Below are positions 1,454-62,889 of a stretch of DNA of 64,000 nucleotides, one piece after another. The position numbers and the translations under genes are program-made. The notes below the pieces were generated by a model, which ran no database searches, was not told where the DNA came from, and saw nothing but the letters and a program-made list of their open reading frames with translations. Each line of letters opens with the position of its first letter. The stretch's first letter is position 1. Source of the DNA: an uncultured Lentimicrobiaceae bacterium (GTDB lineage Bacteria > Bacteroidota > Bacteroidia > Bacteroidales > F082); NCBI GenBank assembly GCA_964459375.1, contig CAYWLJ010000003.1, positions 79,236 to 143,235 of the forward strand. Direction: 5' to 3'.

Positions 1454-1520
1454 TTTCTTTGAGTGCTTTGCGAAAGAGGTTTTTCACGCAAAGGCTGCGA
1501 AGGTTTCCACGCAAAGGTCA
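1454..1520. repeat. palindromic CTTTGCG/CGCAAAG intergenic repeat (single copy of the family arrayed at 16254-16575)
   Basis: tttctttgagtgctttgcgaaagaggtttttcacgcaaaggctgcgaaggtttccacgcaaaggtcac. Shares the ctttg(c/a)gtgctttgcg and cacgcaaagg arms and the gaggttttt spacer with the 16.3-kb array. Sits between convergent genes. Confidence 0.7.
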
Positions 1521-1560
1521 CAATGGGAGTTTACGCGCCAAGGGTTATGATAGTAATTGA

Positions 1561-2049
1561 TTACCTGGCGTGAAGCAGTTTAATCCCAAATCCTTTGTTC
1601 GACGACCAACCAGTTTTGTCGGTCAGGCTGATGAAGAAGTGGTAGTCGCCCTCTTGCAGGGTGCCAGTGTCGTTTTGGGAAGGTATGGGAATTTTCAAAA
1701 TCCCTTCGTGGGTGCGTTTGCCCGGAGGTATGTCGAATACCCCGATGAAAACGAAGGGATTGGTGGCAGGTTTTCGAAGTTCGAGCGGGCAATTGACGGC
1801 TTCAGTACTGTGCGAGTGGTGGTCGAAGTTGTGGTGTATGTCAATGCGGTAGCTGCCCAGTTCGGTATTGTCTTCGAACCTTACCCGAACACTCAGTGTA
1901 TCGCCCAGCAGCAACGTGTCGCAGGGCAGGGGAGTAGCCCCGGCAAAGCCGAATTCGATGACCGGTTTCTGGTCGTCCACTTCGGCTTTCCGGCAGGCCG
2001 TTGTCAATCCTGACAGGTAAAGCATCAACAAGAGGAATTTCCTGTTCAT
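1561..2049 (-). CDS. His-rich lipoprotein, DUF4625-like
   Basis: 162 aa. Lipoprotein signal LSGLTTAC followed by RKAEVDD. His cluster IDIHHNFDHHSHSTE. Beta-rich, paralogous in layout to the next gene. The DUF4625 assignment is from memory. Confidence 0.65.
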   Translation of the reverse strand: MNRKFLLLMLYLSGLTTACRKAEVDDQKPVIEFGFAGATPLPCDTLLLGDTLSVRVRFEDNTELGSYRIDIHHNFDHHSHSTEAVNCPLELRKPATNPFVFIGVFDIPPGKRTHEGILKIPIPSQNDTGTLQEGDYHFFISLTDKTGWSSNKGFGIKLLHAR

Positions 2050-54631: not shown

Positions 54632-55282
54632 ATGGATTGGATTCAAAACGTGAGCCCGCTCGAATGGCTGGGTTATGCTGCTTCGGCGGTGGTGGCTGTT
54701 TCGCTGGCTTTAAGTTCGGTGGTTAAGTTCAGGATAATCAATCTGATTGGTGCCGCCATGTTTTCGGCCTACGGTTTTATTATTGGTGCCTATCCGGTGG
54801 GAGTGATGAACGGGCTGATTGTGTTGCTGGACTTGTATTATCTGGTCAGGATTTTTGGTGCCAAAGAGGTTTTTGAGGTGCTCGAAATCCAGCCCGACAG
54901 CCGCTACTTAAGACGATTCCTTGGGTTTCACCGCAAAGAGATTCAGCGCTTTTTCCCCAAATACCATTTTAACCCTTCAGCCGATACCATTTCGTATTTT
55001 GTGTTGCGCAATATGGAGGTGGCCGGAGTATTTGCCGGATCGCCCGACAAGGAAGGCCGGCTTAATGTGAACATCGATTATGTGATACCCCGTTTTCGCG
55101 ACTTCAAGAATGGGAAGTTTGTTTACGGCCATCTTGGGCAGAAACTGGCTGAGGCAGGCATAAAAACCATCATCACCCGGCCTGCTACAAAAACACACGC
55201 CCAATACCTGATCAGGATGGGATTCGAAAACACGCCTGAGGGTTATTATTCAAAGGCCCTTTTAATGGACATCGCTATTTAA
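54632..55282 (+). CDS. YgjV-like membrane domain fused to a soluble C-terminal domain
   Basis: EWLGYAASAVVAVSLALSS ... IINLIGAAMFSAYGFIIGAYPVGVMNGLIVLLDLYYL (3 TM helices), then a roughly 140-aa alpha/beta domain. The track start at 54626 is TTG. Confidence 0.5.
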   Translation: MDWIQNVSPLEWLGYAASAVVAVSLALSSVVKFRIINLIGAAMFSAYGFIIGAYPVGVMNGLIVLLDLYYLVRIFGAKEVFEVLEIQPDSRYLRRFLGFHRKEIQRFFPKYHFNPSADTISYFVLRNMEVAGVFAGSPDKEGRLNVNIDYVIPRFRDFKNGKFVYGHLGQKLAEAGIKTIITRPATKTHAQYLIRMGFENTPEGYYSKALLMDIAI

Positions 55283-55895
55283 GGGTGCTTAATCCCTGAA
55301 GGGCATCGGCATCGTTGGGCCTAATGAGCAGGGCTTTCTGAAACATCACTTTGGCTTCGCGGAGTTGTCCCGATTTGAGGCGGGTCCATGCCACCATAAT
55401 CACGGTGTCATAGTCGAAGGGATAAAGGTTGAGCACCTTTTCAAAAAACCGCAAAGCCTGTGCATATTCCTGTCGTCCGTAGTGAATGAGCCCCATGCGG
55501 TAGTTGGCCAGTGTATTCATGGGGTCGATTTTCAGAATGTCGCGGTATTGTTTTTCAACCTGTGCCCAATTGCCAAGGGCAGCTGCCGGAAGCACATAAC
55601 CCAGCTTAGCCTCGGTAGAAACAGGCATCAGCTCGATACTCTTCTGGTAGTAGGGCAGAGCGTCGGTAAAGCGGCCCGACATATAGTAGAGCCATCCCAG
55701 CCTCAGGTTGAGTTCGTAGCTGTCTGGCCTGTAAACATTGAGCAAAGCCTGAATGGCCTGCGGGTACTCGCCCTTGTTTTCGGCTGCGTAAGAGGTTTCG
55801 AATGCTTTGACCAGTTTTTCCTGATCCTGGGCGTAGCTGCCTGATGCAAAGGCAAGCAAAAACATCATGAAAAGGGCTTTTCTCAGAAATTCCAT
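55275..55895 (-). CDS. secreted tetratricopeptide-repeat protein
   Basis: Signal peptide MMFLLAFASGSYAQ. Four to five TPR units (YPQAIQALLNVY ... , FTDALPYYQKSIEL ... , WAQVEKQYRDILKIDP ... , YAQALRFFEKVLNLYP ... ). Confidence 0.7.
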   Translation of the reverse strand: MEFLRKALFMMFLLAFASGSYAQDQEKLVKAFETSYAAENKGEYPQAIQALLNVYRPDSYELNLRLGWLYYMSGRFTDALPYYQKSIELMPVSTEAKLGYVLPAAALGNWAQVEKQYRDILKIDPMNTLANYRMGLIHYGRQEYAQALRFFEKVLNLYPFDYDTVIMVAWTRLKSGQLREAKVMFQKALLIRPNDADALQGLSTLK

Positions 55896-57349
55896 ATCAA
55901 TCCTCCGATAATTCCATGTGAAGTTAGTGATTTAGCTGAAATCTGCAGCTGCTGCTCGTTGTCGATTTGTTCTTCCAGATAAAAACTCCTGCTCTGACGG
56001 TAGCGTATGTTGATGCCGAGCCGGGGTATAAGTTGGTGGTAGAAAGTGGCGTCACCAAACAGCATAATTTTTTCACGATGGTTTAAGGTGACATAACCCC
56101 ATTGATCGGCCATGCCATTAAGATGTCCGGCTATTGCCACTGCCGAGAGGTAGGTTTTCCGGCCAAGCCATTGCCCGGCAGAGACTTTCACAGCCGGACG
56201 CAAGCTGCCTCGTGTGCCAAGCAAAAATATTTCGGTCTGTTGCCAGGTTCTGGCATTCCCTGCCACCCGCCAGGTATAACCCAGCTGTAGTTGCAATATG
56301 CTGGTATCGTTTACCCTGCCGAGGTGTATTGCGGCTCCGGGACTTACCCCTCCAAAATGCATCACCCCTCCCAGCACAAAGCGGTAGTCGGTGGTCTGCC
56401 ATAAAGTATTACTAACACGAATGGCAGGCACATCGATGCTGAATAAGGTGGCAAGGCCGGTGTTGAGGTCAAGCCGGGCCGTGTCGGTGAATGTTTTGCT
56501 TATTTCCTGAGCATAAGGATATTCGCCCTCAAGCTTTGAGATCCCTGCCGAAGCCACCAGCATGATATGGTGCGCAGGGGCGTGGCGCATCTGAAGGTAG
56601 GCCGTGTTCTGAACTACAGAGGCCCCGGAAGTAAACACTGTCGGTTCAGTATCGATACGGTAGTAGAAATCTTTGTAATTCCCGTTGATTTCCACCCTGT
56701 CGGTTTTCATTTTCGGATTCAGGTAAGCATAGTTTTGCCCGAAAATATGAGCAAAGTGTTGCGCTCCGGCATATAACATCCAGCCGGGCTTAAGTTGCAT
56801 CCACAATCCGGCATCAGCCACTCCGCTGCTGGTAAGTCCTGACTGACTACCGTACACCCCTGCTTCGCCAGCCAGGGTTTCGAAGTTTTCCGATGTTTTG
56901 TGGTTGGATATGGTATTTCCGACATCCACATGAGCGGTCAGCAGTCCAAATCCGGAACGAATAGGCAGGTCATTGCGCTGACTTTCGGGCAGTTTGGCAA
57001 ACACCGCCCCGGCCTCAGTTGGCATAAGGCTGTATTGTCGGGCCAGCACTAAAAGGCGTCTTGCCTGTGGATCGGACGGGTTAAACTGCAACGCTTTGCT
57101 CAGATGCCTTGCGGCCTGATCGTATTTGTGAGTTTCTATCGCAGCCACTGCCAGACGCATCCGCAAAAAATAATAGTCGACACCCTGACGATGAAGCTGC
57201 CGGCCGGTGCGCAACAAATCGTCCCACCTGCCCTGCTGATAAAGCTGCCAGCTGAGGCTGTCGGGATTGAGCGAACGACTCCATGATTGCGCGCGCAATG
57301 CCATAGCAACAAACAGCAATAGCAATGTAAACAATATATTCCTAAACAC
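55883..57349 (-). CDS. outer-membrane beta-barrel protein with N-terminal TPR-like region
   Basis: Signal peptide ...AMALRAQ. Helical repeat region (about aa 25-115). Then alternating beta-strand pattern ending GIIGGLIWNF (aromatic C-terminus). Confidence 0.5.
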   Translation of the reverse strand: MFRNILFTLLLLFVAMALRAQSWSRSLNPDSLSWQLYQQGRWDDLLRTGRQLHRQGVDYYFLRMRLAVAAIETHKYDQAARHLSKALQFNPSDPQARRLLVLARQYSLMPTEAGAVFAKLPESQRNDLPIRSGFGLLTAHVDVGNTISNHKTSENFETLAGEAGVYGSQSGLTSSGVADAGLWMQLKPGWMLYAGAQHFAHIFGQNYAYLNPKMKTDRVEINGNYKDFYYRIDTEPTVFTSGASVVQNTAYLQMRHAPAHHIMLVASAGISKLEGEYPYAQEISKTFTDTARLDLNTGLATLFSIDVPAIRVSNTLWQTTDYRFVLGGVMHFGGVSPGAAIHLGRVNDTSILQLQLGYTWRVAGNARTWQQTEIFLLGTRGSLRPAVKVSAGQWLGRKTYLSAVAIAGHLNGMADQWGYVTLNHREKIMLFGDATFYHQLIPRLGINIRYRQSRSFYLEEQIDNEQQLQISAKSLTSHGIIGGLIWNF

Positions 57350-59540
57350 GCTTCAAGGTTTTAACATTTCCATTCCGCCTGATGATTACCTGCCTCAGTT
57401 GTTCGTCGTTGAAGTGCAGTTCGCAGTCTTGTGCTGCCAGAACTTTTCCGAATATTGAAAATTTCGTTTGGCTGGTCATCACAAAGCCCTCGTCGAACAA
57501 ATCGCCTTTTCTTGCGCTGTGTTCCAAACGATAGGACGTTTTGAGAAACCTGTATAAGGGTGCTACGATATCCAGTAGCATCCTCAGGGTTTTGTTCGGA
57601 AAATAATGAAGGCTGATGCTTTCGTCGAGTTGGATTCCGGGCTCAAACCCGGTGGTGAGCTGATAGGCTCCCAGAAAAAAATCGCGCAGCAGACTGTTCT
57701 CCGGTCCCTCGTAATGGGTGAAAAAAAGGATATCGGGCAGCCTCACCATCCAGGCCCTTGCACCGGTCTGGCTACATTCGAGGTAAGTATTGTTGAAAAT
57801 ATCGGTTTCAACCCGCCATACCACCTGTTCATTCGCCTCTTGCTGATCGATGACCTCGAAGCAAAGTTCCTGACCGGGCACAAAATGCAGGGCCTTGTCG
57901 AGCAGGGTTTCAGTATTGAGGTTGGATACAAATTCATTGATCCTGGGCTGACCGGATGCAATGAAATGCTTTTTGTGAGTCTTATTCAGGTATCCGGAGA
58001 ACGAATAATTGAGAGTGGCAGCACCTATTTCGGGTGCCGTCTGAAACTGCACATGCAGATGCGGGTAGGGCGAGCGCCCCGAATTGCCACAACGTCCAAT
58101 CTGCTCGCCTTTGCGCACGGGCTGTCCCGCCTTGACTGCAATACTGCCTTTTTTCAGGTGGCTTAGTTGGCTGTAGAGGCCTGTGGTGTGCCAGATAAGC
58201 ACTGTATTGCCCCAATTCTTGTTCAGGTTTATATCGCCAATGGCGTTATCGGGGATGCCGTCGGCTACCTCCTGCACCACCCCGTCGGCAGGTGCCACTA
58301 CAGGTTTGTCGAAACAATAATAATCCTCGCAGTTGAGGCCTTCGCCCCGAAAAGTTTTCCCCTCCTCATCGGTCATCTCAAAATCCCAGGCATGTCGCCA
58401 GGCGTCCTTGTGGGTGAACTCGCCATCGAAAGCCTGAGTCACTTTCCATATCCCCCAGAAAGGCAGCTTTACGGGAAAGCTGTAGAGGTGAGCAAGGCGC
58501 TTGCGGTTCACAAGGTAATTATACTGGTTTTGTTCGGGGCTGTATTGCTGGTAAAAAACCAGGGGTGGATTTTCGGTAAAACGCTCGCGCAGACGCAGCA
58601 AATAGAGCACCAGCAACACCACCACGTTGAAAGGCAGCGAATAGATGCCCATCTGCCAGTTGCCAAACACGGCATTGCCCGATGCTATCACAAACGCAGT
58701 GAGCGGAACCGCCAGCAACAGCCATATCAGCGAGCCTGCCGAAGGCACCAGAAAAAACCCTCCGATGGCAATGCTGGTGAGAATATAGTTGAAACCGATA
58801 TAGCTGTACGAAACCGACTGCATGTTGATGCCCAGCAGCTTGTATAACCACCAGGCAGTCGCAAAACCCACAACTGAAAACAGCAAGGCCTGCCGCGACC
58901 ACCTGAAAAGGGCAATGGCTACAAGCAGTCCGGCAAACAGATGGTATTGAAAAAATATGGCTCCCAGCGACCGGAAATAGATCTTGACCACCTCGGGCAG
59001 ACTGAGGTTGTTGATCCATTCATAGCCATCGAGCAGGGGAAGTCCGCCCAGCAGAAACATTTCGTTGAGTTTATATAAACCATGGGTGCTAAGCTCGAGC
59101 TGACCAAAGTCGCGGGTGCTCAAGAGGCTCATCCAGTAGGTGATCAGGAACGGCAGGCTCAGAAAAGGCAGATTGTATTTCGAAAGGATGCCTTCGAGCA
59201 GGGTGGTGACCAGCAGACTCAGCAGGGCAGCAAACAAAATAACCAGCAGAAATGCCGCGTTGAAGTGGTAATACGATCCCAGACCCAGACCAACCAGTAA
59301 GGCATTGAACCCATAAAGCCCGTCGGTGATTTTCTGTCTGTTAAGTCCACTAAGATATGCTGCAAGGTTGGCCACCACCACCGAAAGCCATCCGGCCAAT
59401 CCAGCCTGCCAGTCGAAAAAGGAAATGAGAATGAGTGTCCAGCCCAGAATTTTATCTTTCGAAAAAAGTATCTGGGTGTAGCTGTTGCGGATGCTCAGCC
59501 TGAAATGAGGGAATACCAGCCTGAACTGCGCGATGCTCAT
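57342..59540 (-). CDS. urea-transporter-family membrane domain fused to an M23 (LytM) peptidase domain and an unknown C-terminal domain
   Basis: N-terminal roughly 330 aa polytopic with NSYTQILFS ... GLYGFNALLVGLGLG (UT family). Middle has GNTVLIWHTTGLYSQLSHLKKGS ... GEQIGRCGNSGRSPYPHLHVQ (M23 HxH). About 200-aa tail. Confidence 0.75.
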   Translation of the reverse strand: MSIAQFRLVFPHFRLSIRNSYTQILFSKDKILGWTLILISFFDWQAGLAGWLSVVVANLAAYLSGLNRQKITDGLYGFNALLVGLGLGSYYHFNAAFLLVILFAALLSLLVTTLLEGILSKYNLPFLSLPFLITYWMSLLSTRDFGQLELSTHGLYKLNEMFLLGGLPLLDGYEWINNLSLPEVVKIYFRSLGAIFFQYHLFAGLLVAIALFRWSRQALLFSVVGFATAWWLYKLLGINMQSVSYSYIGFNYILTSIAIGGFFLVPSAGSLIWLLLAVPLTAFVIASGNAVFGNWQMGIYSLPFNVVVLLVLYLLRLRERFTENPPLVFYQQYSPEQNQYNYLVNRKRLAHLYSFPVKLPFWGIWKVTQAFDGEFTHKDAWRHAWDFEMTDEEGKTFRGEGLNCEDYYCFDKPVVAPADGVVQEVADGIPDNAIGDINLNKNWGNTVLIWHTTGLYSQLSHLKKGSIAVKAGQPVRKGEQIGRCGNSGRSPYPHLHVQFQTAPEIGAATLNYSFSGYLNKTHKKHFIASGQPRINEFVSNLNTETLLDKALHFVPGQELCFEVIDQQEANEQVVWRVETDIFNNTYLECSQTGARAWMVRLPDILFFTHYEGPENSLLRDFFLGAYQLTTGFEPGIQLDESISLHYFPNKTLRMLLDIVAPLYRFLKTSYRLEHSARKGDLFDEGFVMTSQTKFSIFGKVLAAQDCELHFNDEQLRQVIIRRNGNVKTLKRV

Positions 59541-60898
59541 AGGTCGAAATGGGCCAGATGAGCAGGGATGAGTTCCTGACTGGTGAGGGTTTCGAGGGTT
59601 TCGGCTCTGCGGATCAGGTGCTTGCCTCCTTCTTCATCGATAAGGATTACGTTGGGCCTGAGGGTGATAAACTGCAACCATTGGGTCATATTGTAAGCAC
59701 CCACATGATGCACTACCACGTGATCGCCCCGGTTGAGCAGGGGCAGGTTGATGTTTTCGCGCACAACGTCGATATTCATGCAAAGCGGCCCGTAAAGTGC
59801 GGTGTCCTCAGTGTAGGAAGTGATGGGTTGGGCCGGGGTGATTAGATGGTCATACCAAAAAGCAGTGAATAGGGTGTTTACACCAATGTCGAGAATGGTA
59901 GCCCTTCGTCCATCGCTCAGGCGCTTATTGGCCAGCACGGTTCCAAGCAACCAGGCTGCATCGTCGATCAGGGCGCGGCCCGATTCGATGATAAGTACTG
60001 GCGATGTTTTCGGGCGGTAATCGCTGTTCATCAGGGCCGAAGTGATGGCCTCGGCAAAGTCGTTAATCGATGGGCTGATGTCGGTGCCCGGCAGGTAAGA
60101 GCCTTTAAGGGTGTTTTTGCTTGCAAATCCCCCTCCGATATCGATGTATTTGATTTCGTGGTTGTACTTGTTCAGCACACTCTGGGCAAGATGGGCCAGC
60201 TTGGAAGCTGCCACAGCATAGGCGTTGGGCGAGAGCATGAAAGTGCCGATATGGGTGTGCAGCCCTACCAGATCCATCAGCCCCGAAAACATGATCTTGT
60301 TGAGCGCATCCCAGGCCTGCCCGTTTTCGTAGTTAAAGCCAAAACGATCCCACATAGGATAGACTCCGGTGTCCATGTTCACCCTGATGGCAACCCGCGG
60401 CCGTAACTTCGAATCCCGGGCAATGTCCTGCAGCAGGTAAAGCTCATCCAGATGGTCAATGTGAATCAGCGAGTTGTTGGTAATGGCCTTTCGCAGATCT
60501 GCTTCGGTTTTGTCAGGCCCATTGAAAATAATTTTACCTCCGGGCACTCCGTTGCGAATGGCTTTATCGTACTCGAATCCTGAAACTACCTCGGCCCACG
60601 AGCCCTCCTGATGATAGATATTGCAAATGGCATCGAGGTAGTTGGTTTTATAACTCCATGCAAACTGCACTTTTGGATAACGGGTTTGAAATGCCTGTCG
60701 CGCATTACGGTAATTCTTGCGCAGCTTTTTTTCCGACACCACAAACAGCGGTGAACCAAACTCCTTGATAAGGTCTTTAACCATCAGTCCTTCAATGGAC
60801 TGGGTGGGATCCTGTGCCGACCTCATTCCGAATTTGTTAGGCATATTGCCCTCAAGTTTCTTGATGACAGGTCTTTCGTAAATTTTTCTCGTTGGCAT
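59537..60898 (-). CDS. PLP-dependent decarboxylase, fold type III (Orn/DAP/Arg decarboxylase family)
   Basis: FGSPLFVVSE, PLP-Lys context FAWSYKTNY, HTHIGT, DIGGGFAS, IIESGRALI, YGPLCMNIDV. The ATG at 60898 avoids overlap with the upstream gene (track start is 60967). Confidence 0.8.
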   Translation of the reverse strand: MPTRKIYERPVIKKLEGNMPNKFGMRSAQDPTQSIEGLMVKDLIKEFGSPLFVVSEKKLRKNYRNARQAFQTRYPKVQFAWSYKTNYLDAICNIYHQEGSWAEVVSGFEYDKAIRNGVPGGKIIFNGPDKTEADLRKAITNNSLIHIDHLDELYLLQDIARDSKLRPRVAIRVNMDTGVYPMWDRFGFNYENGQAWDALNKIMFSGLMDLVGLHTHIGTFMLSPNAYAVAASKLAHLAQSVLNKYNHEIKYIDIGGGFASKNTLKGSYLPGTDISPSINDFAEAITSALMNSDYRPKTSPVLIIESGRALIDDAAWLLGTVLANKRLSDGRRATILDIGVNTLFTAFWYDHLITPAQPITSYTEDTALYGPLCMNIDVVRENINLPLLNRGDHVVVHHVGAYNMTQWLQFITLRPNVILIDEEGGKHLIRRAETLETLTSQELIPAHLAHFDL

Positions 60899-60917: not shown

Positions 60918-61970
60918 TTATAGCTCGCCCTGGGTCGATATGGTTTCAAATTCACTGATGTCCACAATCATATCCCAGGCATAGCGGACAAACATTTTTC
61001 CTGTTTCGTATTGGCTAAAAGGCTCCACCGGCCAGCCCATGGCAAGGCGGGCAACCGCCTCCGGAATGTTTTGTCCACACCCTACGGACAGATAGATCCA
61101 TGCCGGCATGCGGGGATTGATTTCCAGAAGGTGGTATTGCCCGTCTTTGTTTTTCATCAGCTCCAGCTCGAAGGGCCCGCGCCATCTGGATGCCTTGATA
61201 AATTGACGTGTCAGTTCGAGGGCCTGCTGATCGGCTATCGAAATGCCTCCCCAGGCTTTGCCTTTGTCGGTGATGTATTGCTTGCGCATGGGTACTGCCG
61301 CCAGGGTATTGCCTTTGCCATCGCCCAGCCCTGTAACATTAAATTCCGTGCCATGAATAAATTTCTGTATGATGATGGGCAGACCCCATTTGGCCGAAAT
61401 CTTATTGAAGGCAGATCTCACCTGTTCGTTGTTATAGGCCAGGCTGGCGTCGTAATATTTTCCCTTGACCACCAGCGGCCAATCGAATTCTTTATCCAGA
61501 TTCTGTGCTTCGCCCAGGGTATAAATCACCTTTGCCGGTGGAACGTTTATGTTATGCTCCTTGCCGAACTTGTACAGATTCACTTTCTGACGGGCTTCAA
61601 ACTGCTCGTTTTCAGGTAAGAACGTGTGGACTCCCATGCTGCGCAGTGTGCCCGAAAGGCGCATAAACGAAAAGAGCTCTGCATCGAAATTCGGAATGAT
61701 CACATCCAGCTTTTCTTGCTGATGGATATAATTCAGCCGCTGCATCAGGGCTTCGGTTCCGGCCGAGGGATAGGGAATCTGGTAGGTTTTGTCAACAAGC
61801 TCGTGCATATAGATACCCGGTTCGAGCGATTCGTAGAACAGCCCGATAATGCGGCAATCGAAACTCCGGGCCTCCCGCAGACCGCGGATGACGGCCACAC
61901 CGGGCCCTGGGCTGTCGATGGCATTGAGTCCCGAAACAGCGATGGTAAGCTTGGGCCTAATCTTCGTCAT
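60918..61970 (-). CDS. ATP-grasp domain ligase
   Basis: 350 aa. Pre-ATP-grasp LTIAVSGLNAIDSPGPGVAV, WPLVVKGKYY, IIQKFIHGTEFNV, ELELMKNKDGQYHLLEINPRMPAW (Mg/ATP site pattern E-x-N). Confidence 0.8.
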   Translation of the reverse strand: MTKIRPKLTIAVSGLNAIDSPGPGVAVIRGLREARSFDCRIIGLFYESLEPGIYMHELVDKTYQIPYPSAGTEALMQRLNYIHQQEKLDVIIPNFDAELFSFMRLSGTLRSMGVHTFLPENEQFEARQKVNLYKFGKEHNINVPPAKVIYTLGEAQNLDKEFDWPLVVKGKYYDASLAYNNEQVRSAFNKISAKWGLPIIIQKFIHGTEFNVTGLGDGKGNTLAAVPMRKQYITDKGKAWGGISIADQQALELTRQFIKASRWRGPFELELMKNKDGQYHLLEINPRMPAWIYLSVGCGQNIPEAVARLAMGWPVEPFSQYETGKMFVRYAWDMIVDISEFETISTQGEL

Positions 61971-62208
61971 AACTTAAAAGGTGATATTGACGCATCATCT
62001 CGATGAAGTCCTGAAGGTCGCGCTCAGCTTGCGTTGACTCAACCTGAAACACCTCACATAGACTTTCGGTAATCTCCTTTGCCTCTGCGCCGCGCCGTAT
62101 AAGGTTCATGATTTCGAGACCAGTGGGATTGGCTGTAAACGATTCGCCTGTCACCGGGTTGAAAACGAAACCGTTGTCGCTGATGGCTATGTTGCTTTTG
62201 ATTTTCAT
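61957..62208 (-). CDS. PqqD-family (RRE-fold) small protein
   Basis: 83 aa. FVFNPVTGESFTANPTGLEIMNLIRRGAEAKEI ... AERDLQDFIEMMRQYHLL fits the PqqD pattern. Acidic C-terminus SYDED. Overlaps the ATP-grasp start by 14 nt. Confidence 0.7.
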   Translation of the reverse strand: MKIKSNIAISDNGFVFNPVTGESFTANPTGLEIMNLIRRGAEAKEITESLCEVFQVESTQAERDLQDFIEMMRQYHLLSYDED

Positions 62209-62271
62209 GGCCGCTTATTTAAATGCAAGATTAGACCTTTTTCATTGTAATTATTGTTCATAAAAATGTGT

Positions 62272-62889
62272 TTATGGTTCAAAATTTTCGACCTTGTTCA
62301 GCATACTGGATTCAGATAACCTGATGCCCATGCGTCCTTTCTCGGGCAAGCTGCGATAATCCGTCACCGAGTAACCTGTTATCTGCTTAAACTGGGTGGA
62401 CAGGTATTGAACGCTGCTGTAGCCCATCATATAGGCAATTTCACTTAATGTAATATATTCGTCCTGAAGCAGTTCTTTCACTTTCTCAATTTTTTGAAGG
62501 ATGATGTATTTCTCCAGTGTAATGTGCTCGTGTCGCGAAAATAAGGTGGATAGATACTGATAGCTCCGGTCGAAGCGGCTGACAATAAAATCGGAATTAC
62601 GTACCATGGCATTAAAGGTAGTATGCCAGACCAGTTCTACAACCACTCTTTTAATGTCCTCGACCATGGCCTTCTCGTGATCGTCTATCAGACTGAACCC
62701 CAACTTCTCGAACAGGCTCAGGATGTCATGCTCCGACACTTTTTCTTCGTCCCAGCGCAGGTTTACCTCTCCAATCCGGGCTTTTTTCACTTCCACACCC
62801 AGCTTTTCCAGCTCAAGCATCAACAGCTTCAGGCAACAGTCGCTGAGCATATTGCGGAGCAGGTATCGTGTCTGGCGAATAGCGGGCAT
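62272..62889 (-). CDS. AraC-family transcriptional regulator
   Basis: C-terminal HTH pair (ITLEKYIILQKIEKVKELL ... LSEIAYMMGYSSVQYLSTQFKQITGYSVTDYR). N-terminal ferredoxin-like domain. Confidence 0.8.
   Translation of the reverse strand: MPAIRQTRYLLRNMLSDCCLKLLMLELEKLGVEVKKARIGEVNLRWDEEKVSEHDILSLFEKLGFSLIDDHEKAMVEDIKRVVVELVWHTTFNAMVRNSDFIVSRFDRSYQYLSTLFSRHEHITLEKYIILQKIEKVKELLQDEYITLSEIAYMMGYSSVQYLSTQFKQITGYSVTDYRSLPEKGRMGIRLSESSMLNKVENFEP

Follow-up and report, generated by a model that had tools for sequence, protein, structure and literature searches.

Discrete RiPP recognition elements (RREs; RiPP, a peptide made by ribosomal synthesis and modified after translation) of the lasso type and the protein LppB bind the leader motif [Y/W]xxPx[L/V/I/F/A] (2026 paper, PMC13381572), and the structures of the lasso B1 proteins TbiB1 and TfuB1 have been solved together with lasso leader peptides. 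In LppB, an Asn after strand β3 (N33) holds the backbone kink at the leader Pro, an Asp (D70) forms a hydrogen bond with the hydroxyl of the leader Tyr, and a Phe (F74) separates the two pockets (PMC13381572). The authors of RRE-Finder noted thousands of 'false positive' discrete lasso-type RREs without lasso machinery (PMC7470986). Here, we analyzed a 64,000-nucleotide (nt) stretch of contig CAYWLJ010000003.1 from an uncultured Lentimicrobiaceae bacterium (the window), in which an 83-residue RRE is encoded in one operon with an ATP-grasp ligase and a pyridoxal phosphate (PLP)-dependent decarboxylase. A lasso B1-type RRE has been recruited into this non-lasso operon; the ligand it most probably binds is not its own acidic end but a conserved, leader-like stretch at the N-terminus of the decarboxylase, which is encoded two genes downstream. 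The elements in question are the following:

61957..62208, minus strand: RRE gene (PqqD family, lasso B1-like), 83 residues, ending ...QYHLLSYDED* (Pfam, AlphaFold2, Foldseek, groove residues).
60918..61970, minus strand: ATP-grasp ligase, 350 residues, PF15632 ATPgrasp_Ter type (profile matches).
61957..61970, minus strand: 14-nt overlap of the RRE stop and the ATP-grasp start (coordinates of the open reading frames, ORFs).
59537..60898, minus strand: fold-type III PLP decarboxylase, 453 residues (Pfam Orn_Arg_deC_N and Orn_DAP_Arg_deC).
60827..60898, minus strand: decarboxylase N-terminal tail, residues 1-24, MPTRKIYERPVIKKLEGNMPNKFG, the proposed built-in leader.
60863-60880, minus strand: motif Y7-E-R-P-V-I12 inside the decarboxylase tail.

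The RRE of the 83-residue protein

By profile, fold and groove residues, the 83-residue protein belongs to the discrete RREs of lasso B1 type. It matched the PqqD family (PF05402) with an E-value of 2.6e-12 and 47.3 bits (cut-off, 23.4), and its nearest NCBIfam models were those of the lasso-peptide PqqD chaperones and the 'HPr-rel-A system' PqqD protein, the latter at 34.2 against a cut-off of 35. The AlphaFold2 (AF2) model, built on an alignment with 41 homologues, had a predicted local distance difference test score (pLDDT) of 92.4; its helices span residues 28-38, 43-54 and 58-74 and its strands 14-17 and 22-25, consistent with the winged-helix RRE fold of a three-stranded sheet and three helices, and the last five residues at the C-terminus are disordered. 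In a Foldseek comparison, the model aligned with TbiB1 (5v1u) at a template modelling (TM) score of 0.87, a root mean square deviation of 1.5 Å and 28% identity, with TfuB1 also among the best matches, and profile matches to Protein Data Bank (PDB) chains were obtained for TbiB1 (2e-11), TfuB1 and PbaB1.

The residues that grip a leader are also retained. Based on the hidden Markov model alignment, E62-R63-D64-L-x-D67-F68 superposes on ERDLRDF of TbiB1, and Q79 and F83 of PbaB1 align to the D64 and F68 columns. In LppB, N33 lies 37 residues before D70, and D70 lies 4 residues before F74; N27, D64 and F68 of the 83-residue protein have these same distances. N27 is conserved in all 126 RRE orthologues and F68 in 122 of them. 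With these residues kept, the groove looks fully competent for a [Y/W]xxPx-type motif.

The operon is not a lasso system. No lasso B2 protease is encoded in it, and PF13471 was not found in the genome, which is 98% complete. No Asn-synthetase-like lasso cyclase was found among the operon proteins, which matched ATP-grasp, Orn/DAP decarboxylase, urea transporter (UT), M23 and tetratricopeptide repeat (TPR) families only, the rest of the genome not having been searched for the cyclase. Given the lack of a B2 protease, and given that the genome has only one PqqD gene, the RRE does not serve a distant lasso cluster.

The sequence-only reading of the window, made before this analysis and without database searches, described a 14-nt overlap of the end of the 83-residue ORF (...QYHLLSYDED) with the ATG of the ATP-grasp gene, and a 63-nt gap upstream of the ORF (62209-62271). 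Both are confirmed by the coordinates, an AraC-type gene ending at 62272. The overlap is a predicted translational coupling of the RRE to the ligase. In two samples of orthologous loci, 29/30 and 79/80 have the PqqD-like gene immediately upstream of the gene for the ATP-grasp enzyme (one locus without it is truncated by the contig end), so that it is no chance ORF, and in most of them the two genes overlap by 4-26 nt or are separated by a gap of less than 30 nt. That they overlap or nearly abut almost everywhere fits a 1:1 co-production of both proteins.

The N-terminal tail of the decarboxylase

The closest solved structures to the decarboxylase are FslC (7kh2, E=7.5e-59), LysA (1e-39) and BtrK (1e-25); the NCBIfam FslC model scored 233.7 bits, under its cut-off of 500. 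The gene really starts with the ATG of position 60898, which follows the stop of the ATP-grasp gene by 19 nt, as shown by an N-terminus that is conserved from there in about 100 orthologues. The automatic ORF list starts the gene at a TTG at 60967, overlapping the ATP-grasp gene by 50 nt. Compared with the LysA and FslC profiles, the protein has a tail of about 24 extra residues, the FslC profile beginning at residue 40.

The tail contains the motif [YF]xxPx[LIVFA], which lies at residues 5-9 of the decarboxylase in 77 of 77 loci and was also present in all 24 loci of an earlier sample (22 with Tyr, 2 with Phe). Residues E8, R9, P10, K22 and G24 are invariant; within the main clade, this also holds for the whole stretch N21-K22-F23-G24, located 15-17 residues beyond the Tyr. 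In the AF2 model of the decarboxylase, based on 71 orthologues, the body of the protein has a pLDDT above 90, and residues 1-27 fall below 50 and lack secondary structure. A segment that is invariant and yet predicted to be disordered looks like a motif that becomes folded upon meeting a partner.

To follow the tail further, we used 103 distant representatives, i.e., clusters at 50% identity with intact N-termini. The motif [Y/W/F]xxPx-hydrophobic was present in 34 of the 103, in 27 cases 40-42 residues ahead of the FGSPLF anchor; in relatives that lack the tail, the median number of residues before this anchor is only 22. The distant tailed decarboxylases keep the motif alone, NKFG being replaced by NTFG, SKSG, NPFR and other sequences. 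The possibility that the tail is itself lasso-like, with G24 as core residue 1 and a ring acid at +7 to +9, was rejected, as the alignment has no conserved Asp or Glu at these positions. A comparison of the tail profile with PDB chains, made for likeness to deposited lasso leaders, gave no meaningful match, which is uninformative given how short the leader chains are.

Co-occurrence and covariation of tail and RRE

Co-occurrence was determined in one sample of 401 Bacteroidota genomes, the same for the ligase, the tail profile and the RRE subfamily. ATP-grasp orthologues were found in 31 genomes (~8%), and the RRE subfamily matched exactly these 31 and none of the other 370. The tail profile matched 31 genomes as well. 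Thirty of these matches are decarboxylases encoded next to the ligase, and the one match in a genome without ligase is borderline (E=0.0084); the remaining ligase genome has a tail so diverged that the profile misses it.

Additionally, we scanned metagenome contigs with a DNA pattern that is blind to gene context and encodes W-x-x-P-x-I-x-x-H-(5 residues)-N-K-F-G. The pattern retrieved 50 stretches, of which 46 were tailed decarboxylases, and among the 31 retrieved tailed decarboxylases with sufficient upstream DNA, 30 were preceded by the ligase and the RRE, the exception being L144 (see below).

The residue of the RRE that corresponds to LppB D70 varies with the aromatic residue of the tail. 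Where the tail has Tyr, residue 64 is Asp in 85 of 87 loci and Asn in the other two; with Phe tails, it is never Asp (0/8; Ser 4, Tyr 3, His 1), and with Trp tails (n=30), it is Asp in 16, Ser in 8, and Asn, His and Ala in 2 each. In a tree built from 124 ATP-grasp rows, the Phe loci form one clade and the Trp loci another, and a Phe-to-Tyr reversal coincides with Asn at residue 64. All four changes from Asp to another residue lie in the Phe and Trp parts of the tree, with none among the 87 Tyr rows. This pattern fits an Asp that would be retained for the Tyr hydroxyl. A clean code between Tyr, Trp or Phe and residue 64 was only partly borne out, with Asp in about half of the Trp-tail loci and few independent events.

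Proposed mechanism

The fold, the groove residues and the tail are established, as are their strict joint occurrence and the lack of a gene for a free peptide (see below). From these, we infer that the RRE docks the decarboxylase tail and so assembles a complex that ligates and then decarboxylates; the inferred parts of this reading, to which we give a probability of about 0.55, are the binding itself, the assembly of a ternary complex and its chemistry. Translational coupling would yield the RRE in a 1:1 ratio with the ATP-grasp ligase. The RRE groove between strand β3 and helix α3 would then grip the disordered tail at Y7-E-R-P-V-I12, and this grip would keep the ligase and the decarboxylase together. 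The ligase would form an amide with an amino acid via its side chain, and the amide would be handed directly to the decarboxylase, which would remove the free α-carboxyl, as in FslA/FslC and BtrJ/BtrK. The product may be handled by the UT-M23 protein together with the secreted TPR and barrel proteins encoded downstream.

Several observations weigh against this reading. First, the tail is found in some places without its supposed partner, amounting to one of 31 in each of our two samples. One Trp-tailed decarboxylase of 461 residues (L144, 1-2545) has neither ligase nor RRE upstream; a second tailed decarboxylase (L139) lies outside the RRE-ligase module; and one genome (G089) has the ligase and the tailed decarboxylase without an adjacent RRE, a distant PqqD paralogue that keeps Asn, Asp and Phe being encoded elsewhere in it (L058, G089:C10:80739-83966, at 1498-1743, minus strand). 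Moreover, a ligase-decarboxylase fusion (P0172, 871 residues) retains the tail though it needs no tether. Second, E8 and R9 are invariant inside the motif, which is more than leader recognition alone requires, and the tail may also, or instead, serve the decarboxylase, e.g., at its dimer interface, or contact the ligase; a role at the dimer interface is beyond the reach of an AF2 monomer model. Third, taken alone, the motif is weak evidence, since Y..P.[LIVM] is also present in structural UT and M23 segments that are conserved in the UT-M23 protein. Finally, independent events behind the covariation of residue 64 are few, namely a single Phe clade, a single Trp clade and a single reversal, and a sign test on it cannot reach significance.

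Some of these loci have further features of their own. The L144 decarboxylase follows a gene pair that resembles DUF692/DUF2063, as assigned by reading the sequences, and this may represent a different use of the tailed enzyme. The PqqD paralogue of G089 belongs to a different operon, where its neighbours are genes for a 168-residue protein, a beta-rich protein of 281 residues and a large FG-GAP-like one whose C-terminus is of the type IX secretion system type. In P0172, ATP-grasp residues 1 to ~345 are followed by a low-complexity linker and the tailed decarboxylase, with YVRPSI at 412-417; the fusion is either natural or mis-called.

Search for a free precursor peptide

RREs normally bind free precursors, and the ligand could be a conventional precursor, unlinked or undetected, that is modified by the ligase and the decarboxylase. 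The groove residues are intact, ORF screens can miss such peptides, and a YxxPx[LIV] motif is too short for a genome-wide search. Small ORFs were therefore compared all against all, on both strands and outside the larger genes, using those of at least 18 residues in 24 loci and those of at least 12 residues in 80 loci. In these 104 loci, no conserved small-ORF family near the RRE was common to more than three closely related loci; the clusters found were pairs or triplets in near-identical loci, mostly antisense. A 37-residue ORF upstream of the RRE in one locus (L005) was considered as a precursor and rejected, being hydrophobic, located in an AT-rich spacer and without relatives in other loci. 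Among the plausible genes of the genome to which the window belongs, only the decarboxylase and an unrelated membrane protein have [YFW]E[RK]Px[LIVM] at the N-terminus.

The 40-residue tail was also compared with 5.8 billion proteins of 22-70 residues, among which it had no free-standing relative. The sole entry retrieved was a decarboxylase whose codon 41 is an in-frame TAA. The 40-residue product of this interrupted gene was called on two independent metagenome contigs, JGI Ga0480401_0218771 (L139 831-1006) and an ENA contig; on Ga0480401_0218771, the contig whose DNA was read, the frame continues past the TAA as a normal decarboxylase, and a Por_Secre_tail protein instead of the ATP-grasp ligase is encoded upstream.

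Two further points speak against a hidden precursor, namely that the residue-64 pattern tracks the decarboxylase tail and that fold-III PLP decarboxylases (LysA, FslC and BtrK) require a free α-amino acid moiety, not a peptide chain. We regard such a precursor as unlikely. The sequence-only reading had described a PqqD/RRE protein without a neighbouring precursor gene, which is borne out by the Pfam match and by the clustering of small ORFs in the 24 and 80 loci. Its proposal that the precursor is encoded elsewhere survives in altered form only: the best candidate ligand is encoded outside the RRE gene, in the decarboxylase tail of the same operon, and is not a free peptide.

Other roles for the RRE and the tail

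Alternatively, the PqqD-like protein could be a structural or allosteric subunit of the ligase that binds no leader, the tail having a role of its own as an active-site lid or dimer contact. The tight coupling to the ligase gene is as expected for a subunit, and the invariance of E8, R9, K22 and G24, the tailed decarboxylases without an adjacent RRE and the tail of P0172 would all be accommodated. The conservation of N27 and F68, together with the dependence of D64 on the tail, is nevertheless hard to explain with an unused groove; furthermore, the tail is predicted to be disordered rather than packed, and distant relatives keep only its leader motif. This alternative seems improbable to us.

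The tail might also be a built-in carrier or substrate, presented by the RRE so that the ATP-grasp enzyme loads an amino acid on a residue such as K22, after which the decarboxylase would act in cis and the M23 domain would release the product. In RiPP systems, it is the part following the leader that enters the active site, and the distance of 15-17 residues between the Tyr and the N21-K22-F23-G24 stretch of the main clade is the same as that from the motif to the cleavage site in lasso precursors. The operon encodes a probably cytoplasmic, channel-linked M23 domain, and BtrK is a relative of the decarboxylase. The wider tailed family, on the other hand, has no conserved residue beyond the motif, and we know of no precedent for such a scheme. 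A small molecule would then be built on the enzyme's own leader-plus-core segment, following a pearlin-, BtrI- or LysW-like logic without a separate scaffold; we rate the built-in carrier as quite improbable.

The sequence-only reading had placed beside the hidden precursor a second model, in which the acidic C-terminus of the 83-residue protein is extended by the ligase, and it had named orthologues without an acidic terminus as a finding that would refute this model. Such orthologues are common, and the acidic end is not conserved. It ends in Asp or Glu in only 35 of 77 orthologues (E 18, D 17, A 14, N 10, K 4, the rest distributed over the nine residues G, S, V, R, L, P, I, T and Q), and terminal Y and M were also seen in the phylum-wide set; it is confined to near relatives of the window protein and constitutes a feature of that clade, not of the family. 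The C-termini of 32 phylum-wide loci differ in length; their last six residues carry anything between 4 net acidic and 3 net basic charges, and ...INRK, ...IRTK, ...LALL and ...YNLY are among the endings seen. The phylum-wide alignments of RRE orthologues contain no invariant Ser, Cys or Lys; S10 is replaced by N or R in some members, and S/T23 lies within strand β3. Judging from these alignments, the acidic end is without a conserved role. A LysW-, RimK- or BtrI-like carrier role of this end, which the YDED terminus, the overlap with the ligase gene and the adjoining ATP-grasp and BtrK-like decarboxylase genes had suggested, is hardly credible and was rejected in view of a terminus that varies in length and charge and is in some cases basic or absent, a fold that is that of an RRE and not of a zinc ribbon or an acyl carrier protein (ACP), and the lack of an invariant nucleophile.

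Gene layout and distribution

The remaining features of the locus are the following:

57342..59540, minus strand: urea-transporter-family channel fused to an M23 peptidase domain and a C-terminal region, 732 residues (Pfam UT E=3e-57, Peptidase_M23 E=9e-16).
55883..57349, minus strand: secreted TPR and beta-rich protein, 488 residues, putative outer-membrane component.
55275..55895, minus strand: secreted TPR protein, 206 residues, the last gene of the operon.
62272..62889, minus strand: AraC-family regulator upstream of the operon (Pfam HTH_18).
62209..62271, minus strand: 63-nt gap between the AraC-family gene and the RRE gene, without a conserved ORF.

All of the genes downstream of the ATP-grasp gene are on the same strand, with overlaps of 4-13 nt among them. 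Different classes share the gene order RRE, ligase, decarboxylase, UT-M23, (barrel), TPR, the gene of the 488-residue TPR and beta-rich protein being absent from some lineages. The AraC-family regulator is upstream in only a minority of the loci, about 22 of 80. The 63-nt spacer carries TAATCTTG about 20 nt before the RRE ATG; TAATCTTG is one mismatch from TAnnTTTG, the Bacteroidota -7 promoter consensus, and the operon may have its own promoter after the AraC gene.

Two loci depart from the usual arrangement of the RRE gene. In L133 (JANTGF010000080.1), an extra ORF of about 250 residues, with no similarity to the proteins of the module, lies between the RRE and ATP-grasp genes, which are ~820 nt apart. 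In L064 (CAWDBP010000004.1), the RRE gene, located upstream of 9001, is apparently frameshifted and encodes a 68-residue product whose C-terminal half is scrambled; the ligase and the tailed decarboxylase of this locus are intact despite it.

ATP-grasp orthologues were found in at least 590 GTDB species representatives, and the operon also occurs in a distinct Trp-tail clade, on metagenome contigs of unidentified lineage. The ATP-grasp protein has more than 7000 clusters at 90% identity, with a length of 344-350 residues in all of the 120 best listed. Its best NCBIfam and Pfam matches are the ATPgrasp_Ter and the 'carbamoyl phosphate synthase-like' PRK12767 models, all under their cut-offs.

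The hydrophobic segments of the UT-M23 fusion come to an end near residue 315, where LRLRERF follows. Because a basic stretch follows the last membrane segment, the positive-inside rule predicts that the M23 peptidase domain is probably cytoplasmic. A cytoplasmic site is unusual for M23, a family of cell-wall hydrolases. The first zinc motif of the domain is H-A-W-D (HxxD), as opposed to the usual HxxxD.

Implications

RREs serve as a class-independent marker in the mining of peptide natural products. If the RRE of this operon reads a leader motif that is part of a full-size enzyme, a share of the orphan RREs would be protein-docking modules and not signs of hidden peptides, and leader recognition would have been reused to assemble a metabolic enzyme complex. 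What would be new here, and what we consider slightly more probable than its opposite, is the reuse of leader recognition between two enzymes. The pair of tail and RRE offers a simple entry point, since it consists of a 30-residue peptide and an 83-residue protein.

Comparison with known systems

In the literature on the combination of an RRE, an ATP-grasp enzyme and a tailed decarboxylase, we found no paper that describes it. Additionally, the graspetide maturase models gave no match in the NCBIfam and Pfam scans of the operon proteins, and no adjacent precursor was found in 80 loci.

LysW/LysX and RimK-S6 resemble the present system in that an ATP-grasp enzyme is paired with a small protein, which is acidic-ended in this genome. 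Unlike in LysW, there is no counterpart here of the conserved C-terminal Glu and the zinc-ribbon fold, and no Cys is conserved.

In the butirosin system, BtrI, BtrJ and BtrK likewise bring a small protein, an ATP-grasp enzyme and a fold-III PLP decarboxylase side by side, with a ligate-then-decarboxylate logic. The resemblance of the ligase-decarboxylase pair to BtrJ/BtrK, already pointed out from the sequence alone, holds, as the decarboxylase is related to BtrK with an E-value of about 1e-25. In contrast to BtrI, which is a four-helix ACP, the small protein of the window is an RRE with neither a phosphopantetheine site nor a conserved terminus.

The adjacency of an amide ligase and a fold-III decarboxylase of the LysA/FslC/BtrK clade, with the gene order kept in all loci, also characterizes this operon. 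The closest solved relative of its decarboxylase is FslC, the N-citrylornithine decarboxylase of the rhizoferrin system FslA/FslC (FigA/FigC) of Francisella, and by analogy this kinship suggests a substrate in which an amino acid is amide-linked via its side chain. Unlike in FslA/FslC, the ligase is an ATP-grasp enzyme and not an NIS (nonribosomal peptide synthetase-independent siderophore) synthetase; FslC has no tail, and no RRE occurs in that system.

The 83-residue protein shares its size, fold, ERDLxDF helix and Asn/Asp/Phe grip with the lasso B1 proteins (TbiB1, 5v1u/5v1v; TfuB1/FusB1, 6jx3; PbaB1, 9x90) and with LppB, which belongs to the linear polyphosphorylated peptides. These systems differ from the operon of the window in their free precursor gene, B2 protease and Asn-synthetase-type cyclase, none of which the operon contains. 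The partners of the RRE are here an ATP-grasp enzyme and a PLP decarboxylase, and the same [Y/W]xxPx[L/V/I/F/A] motif is found in its proposed ligand, where it is located near the beginning of a 453-residue enzyme.

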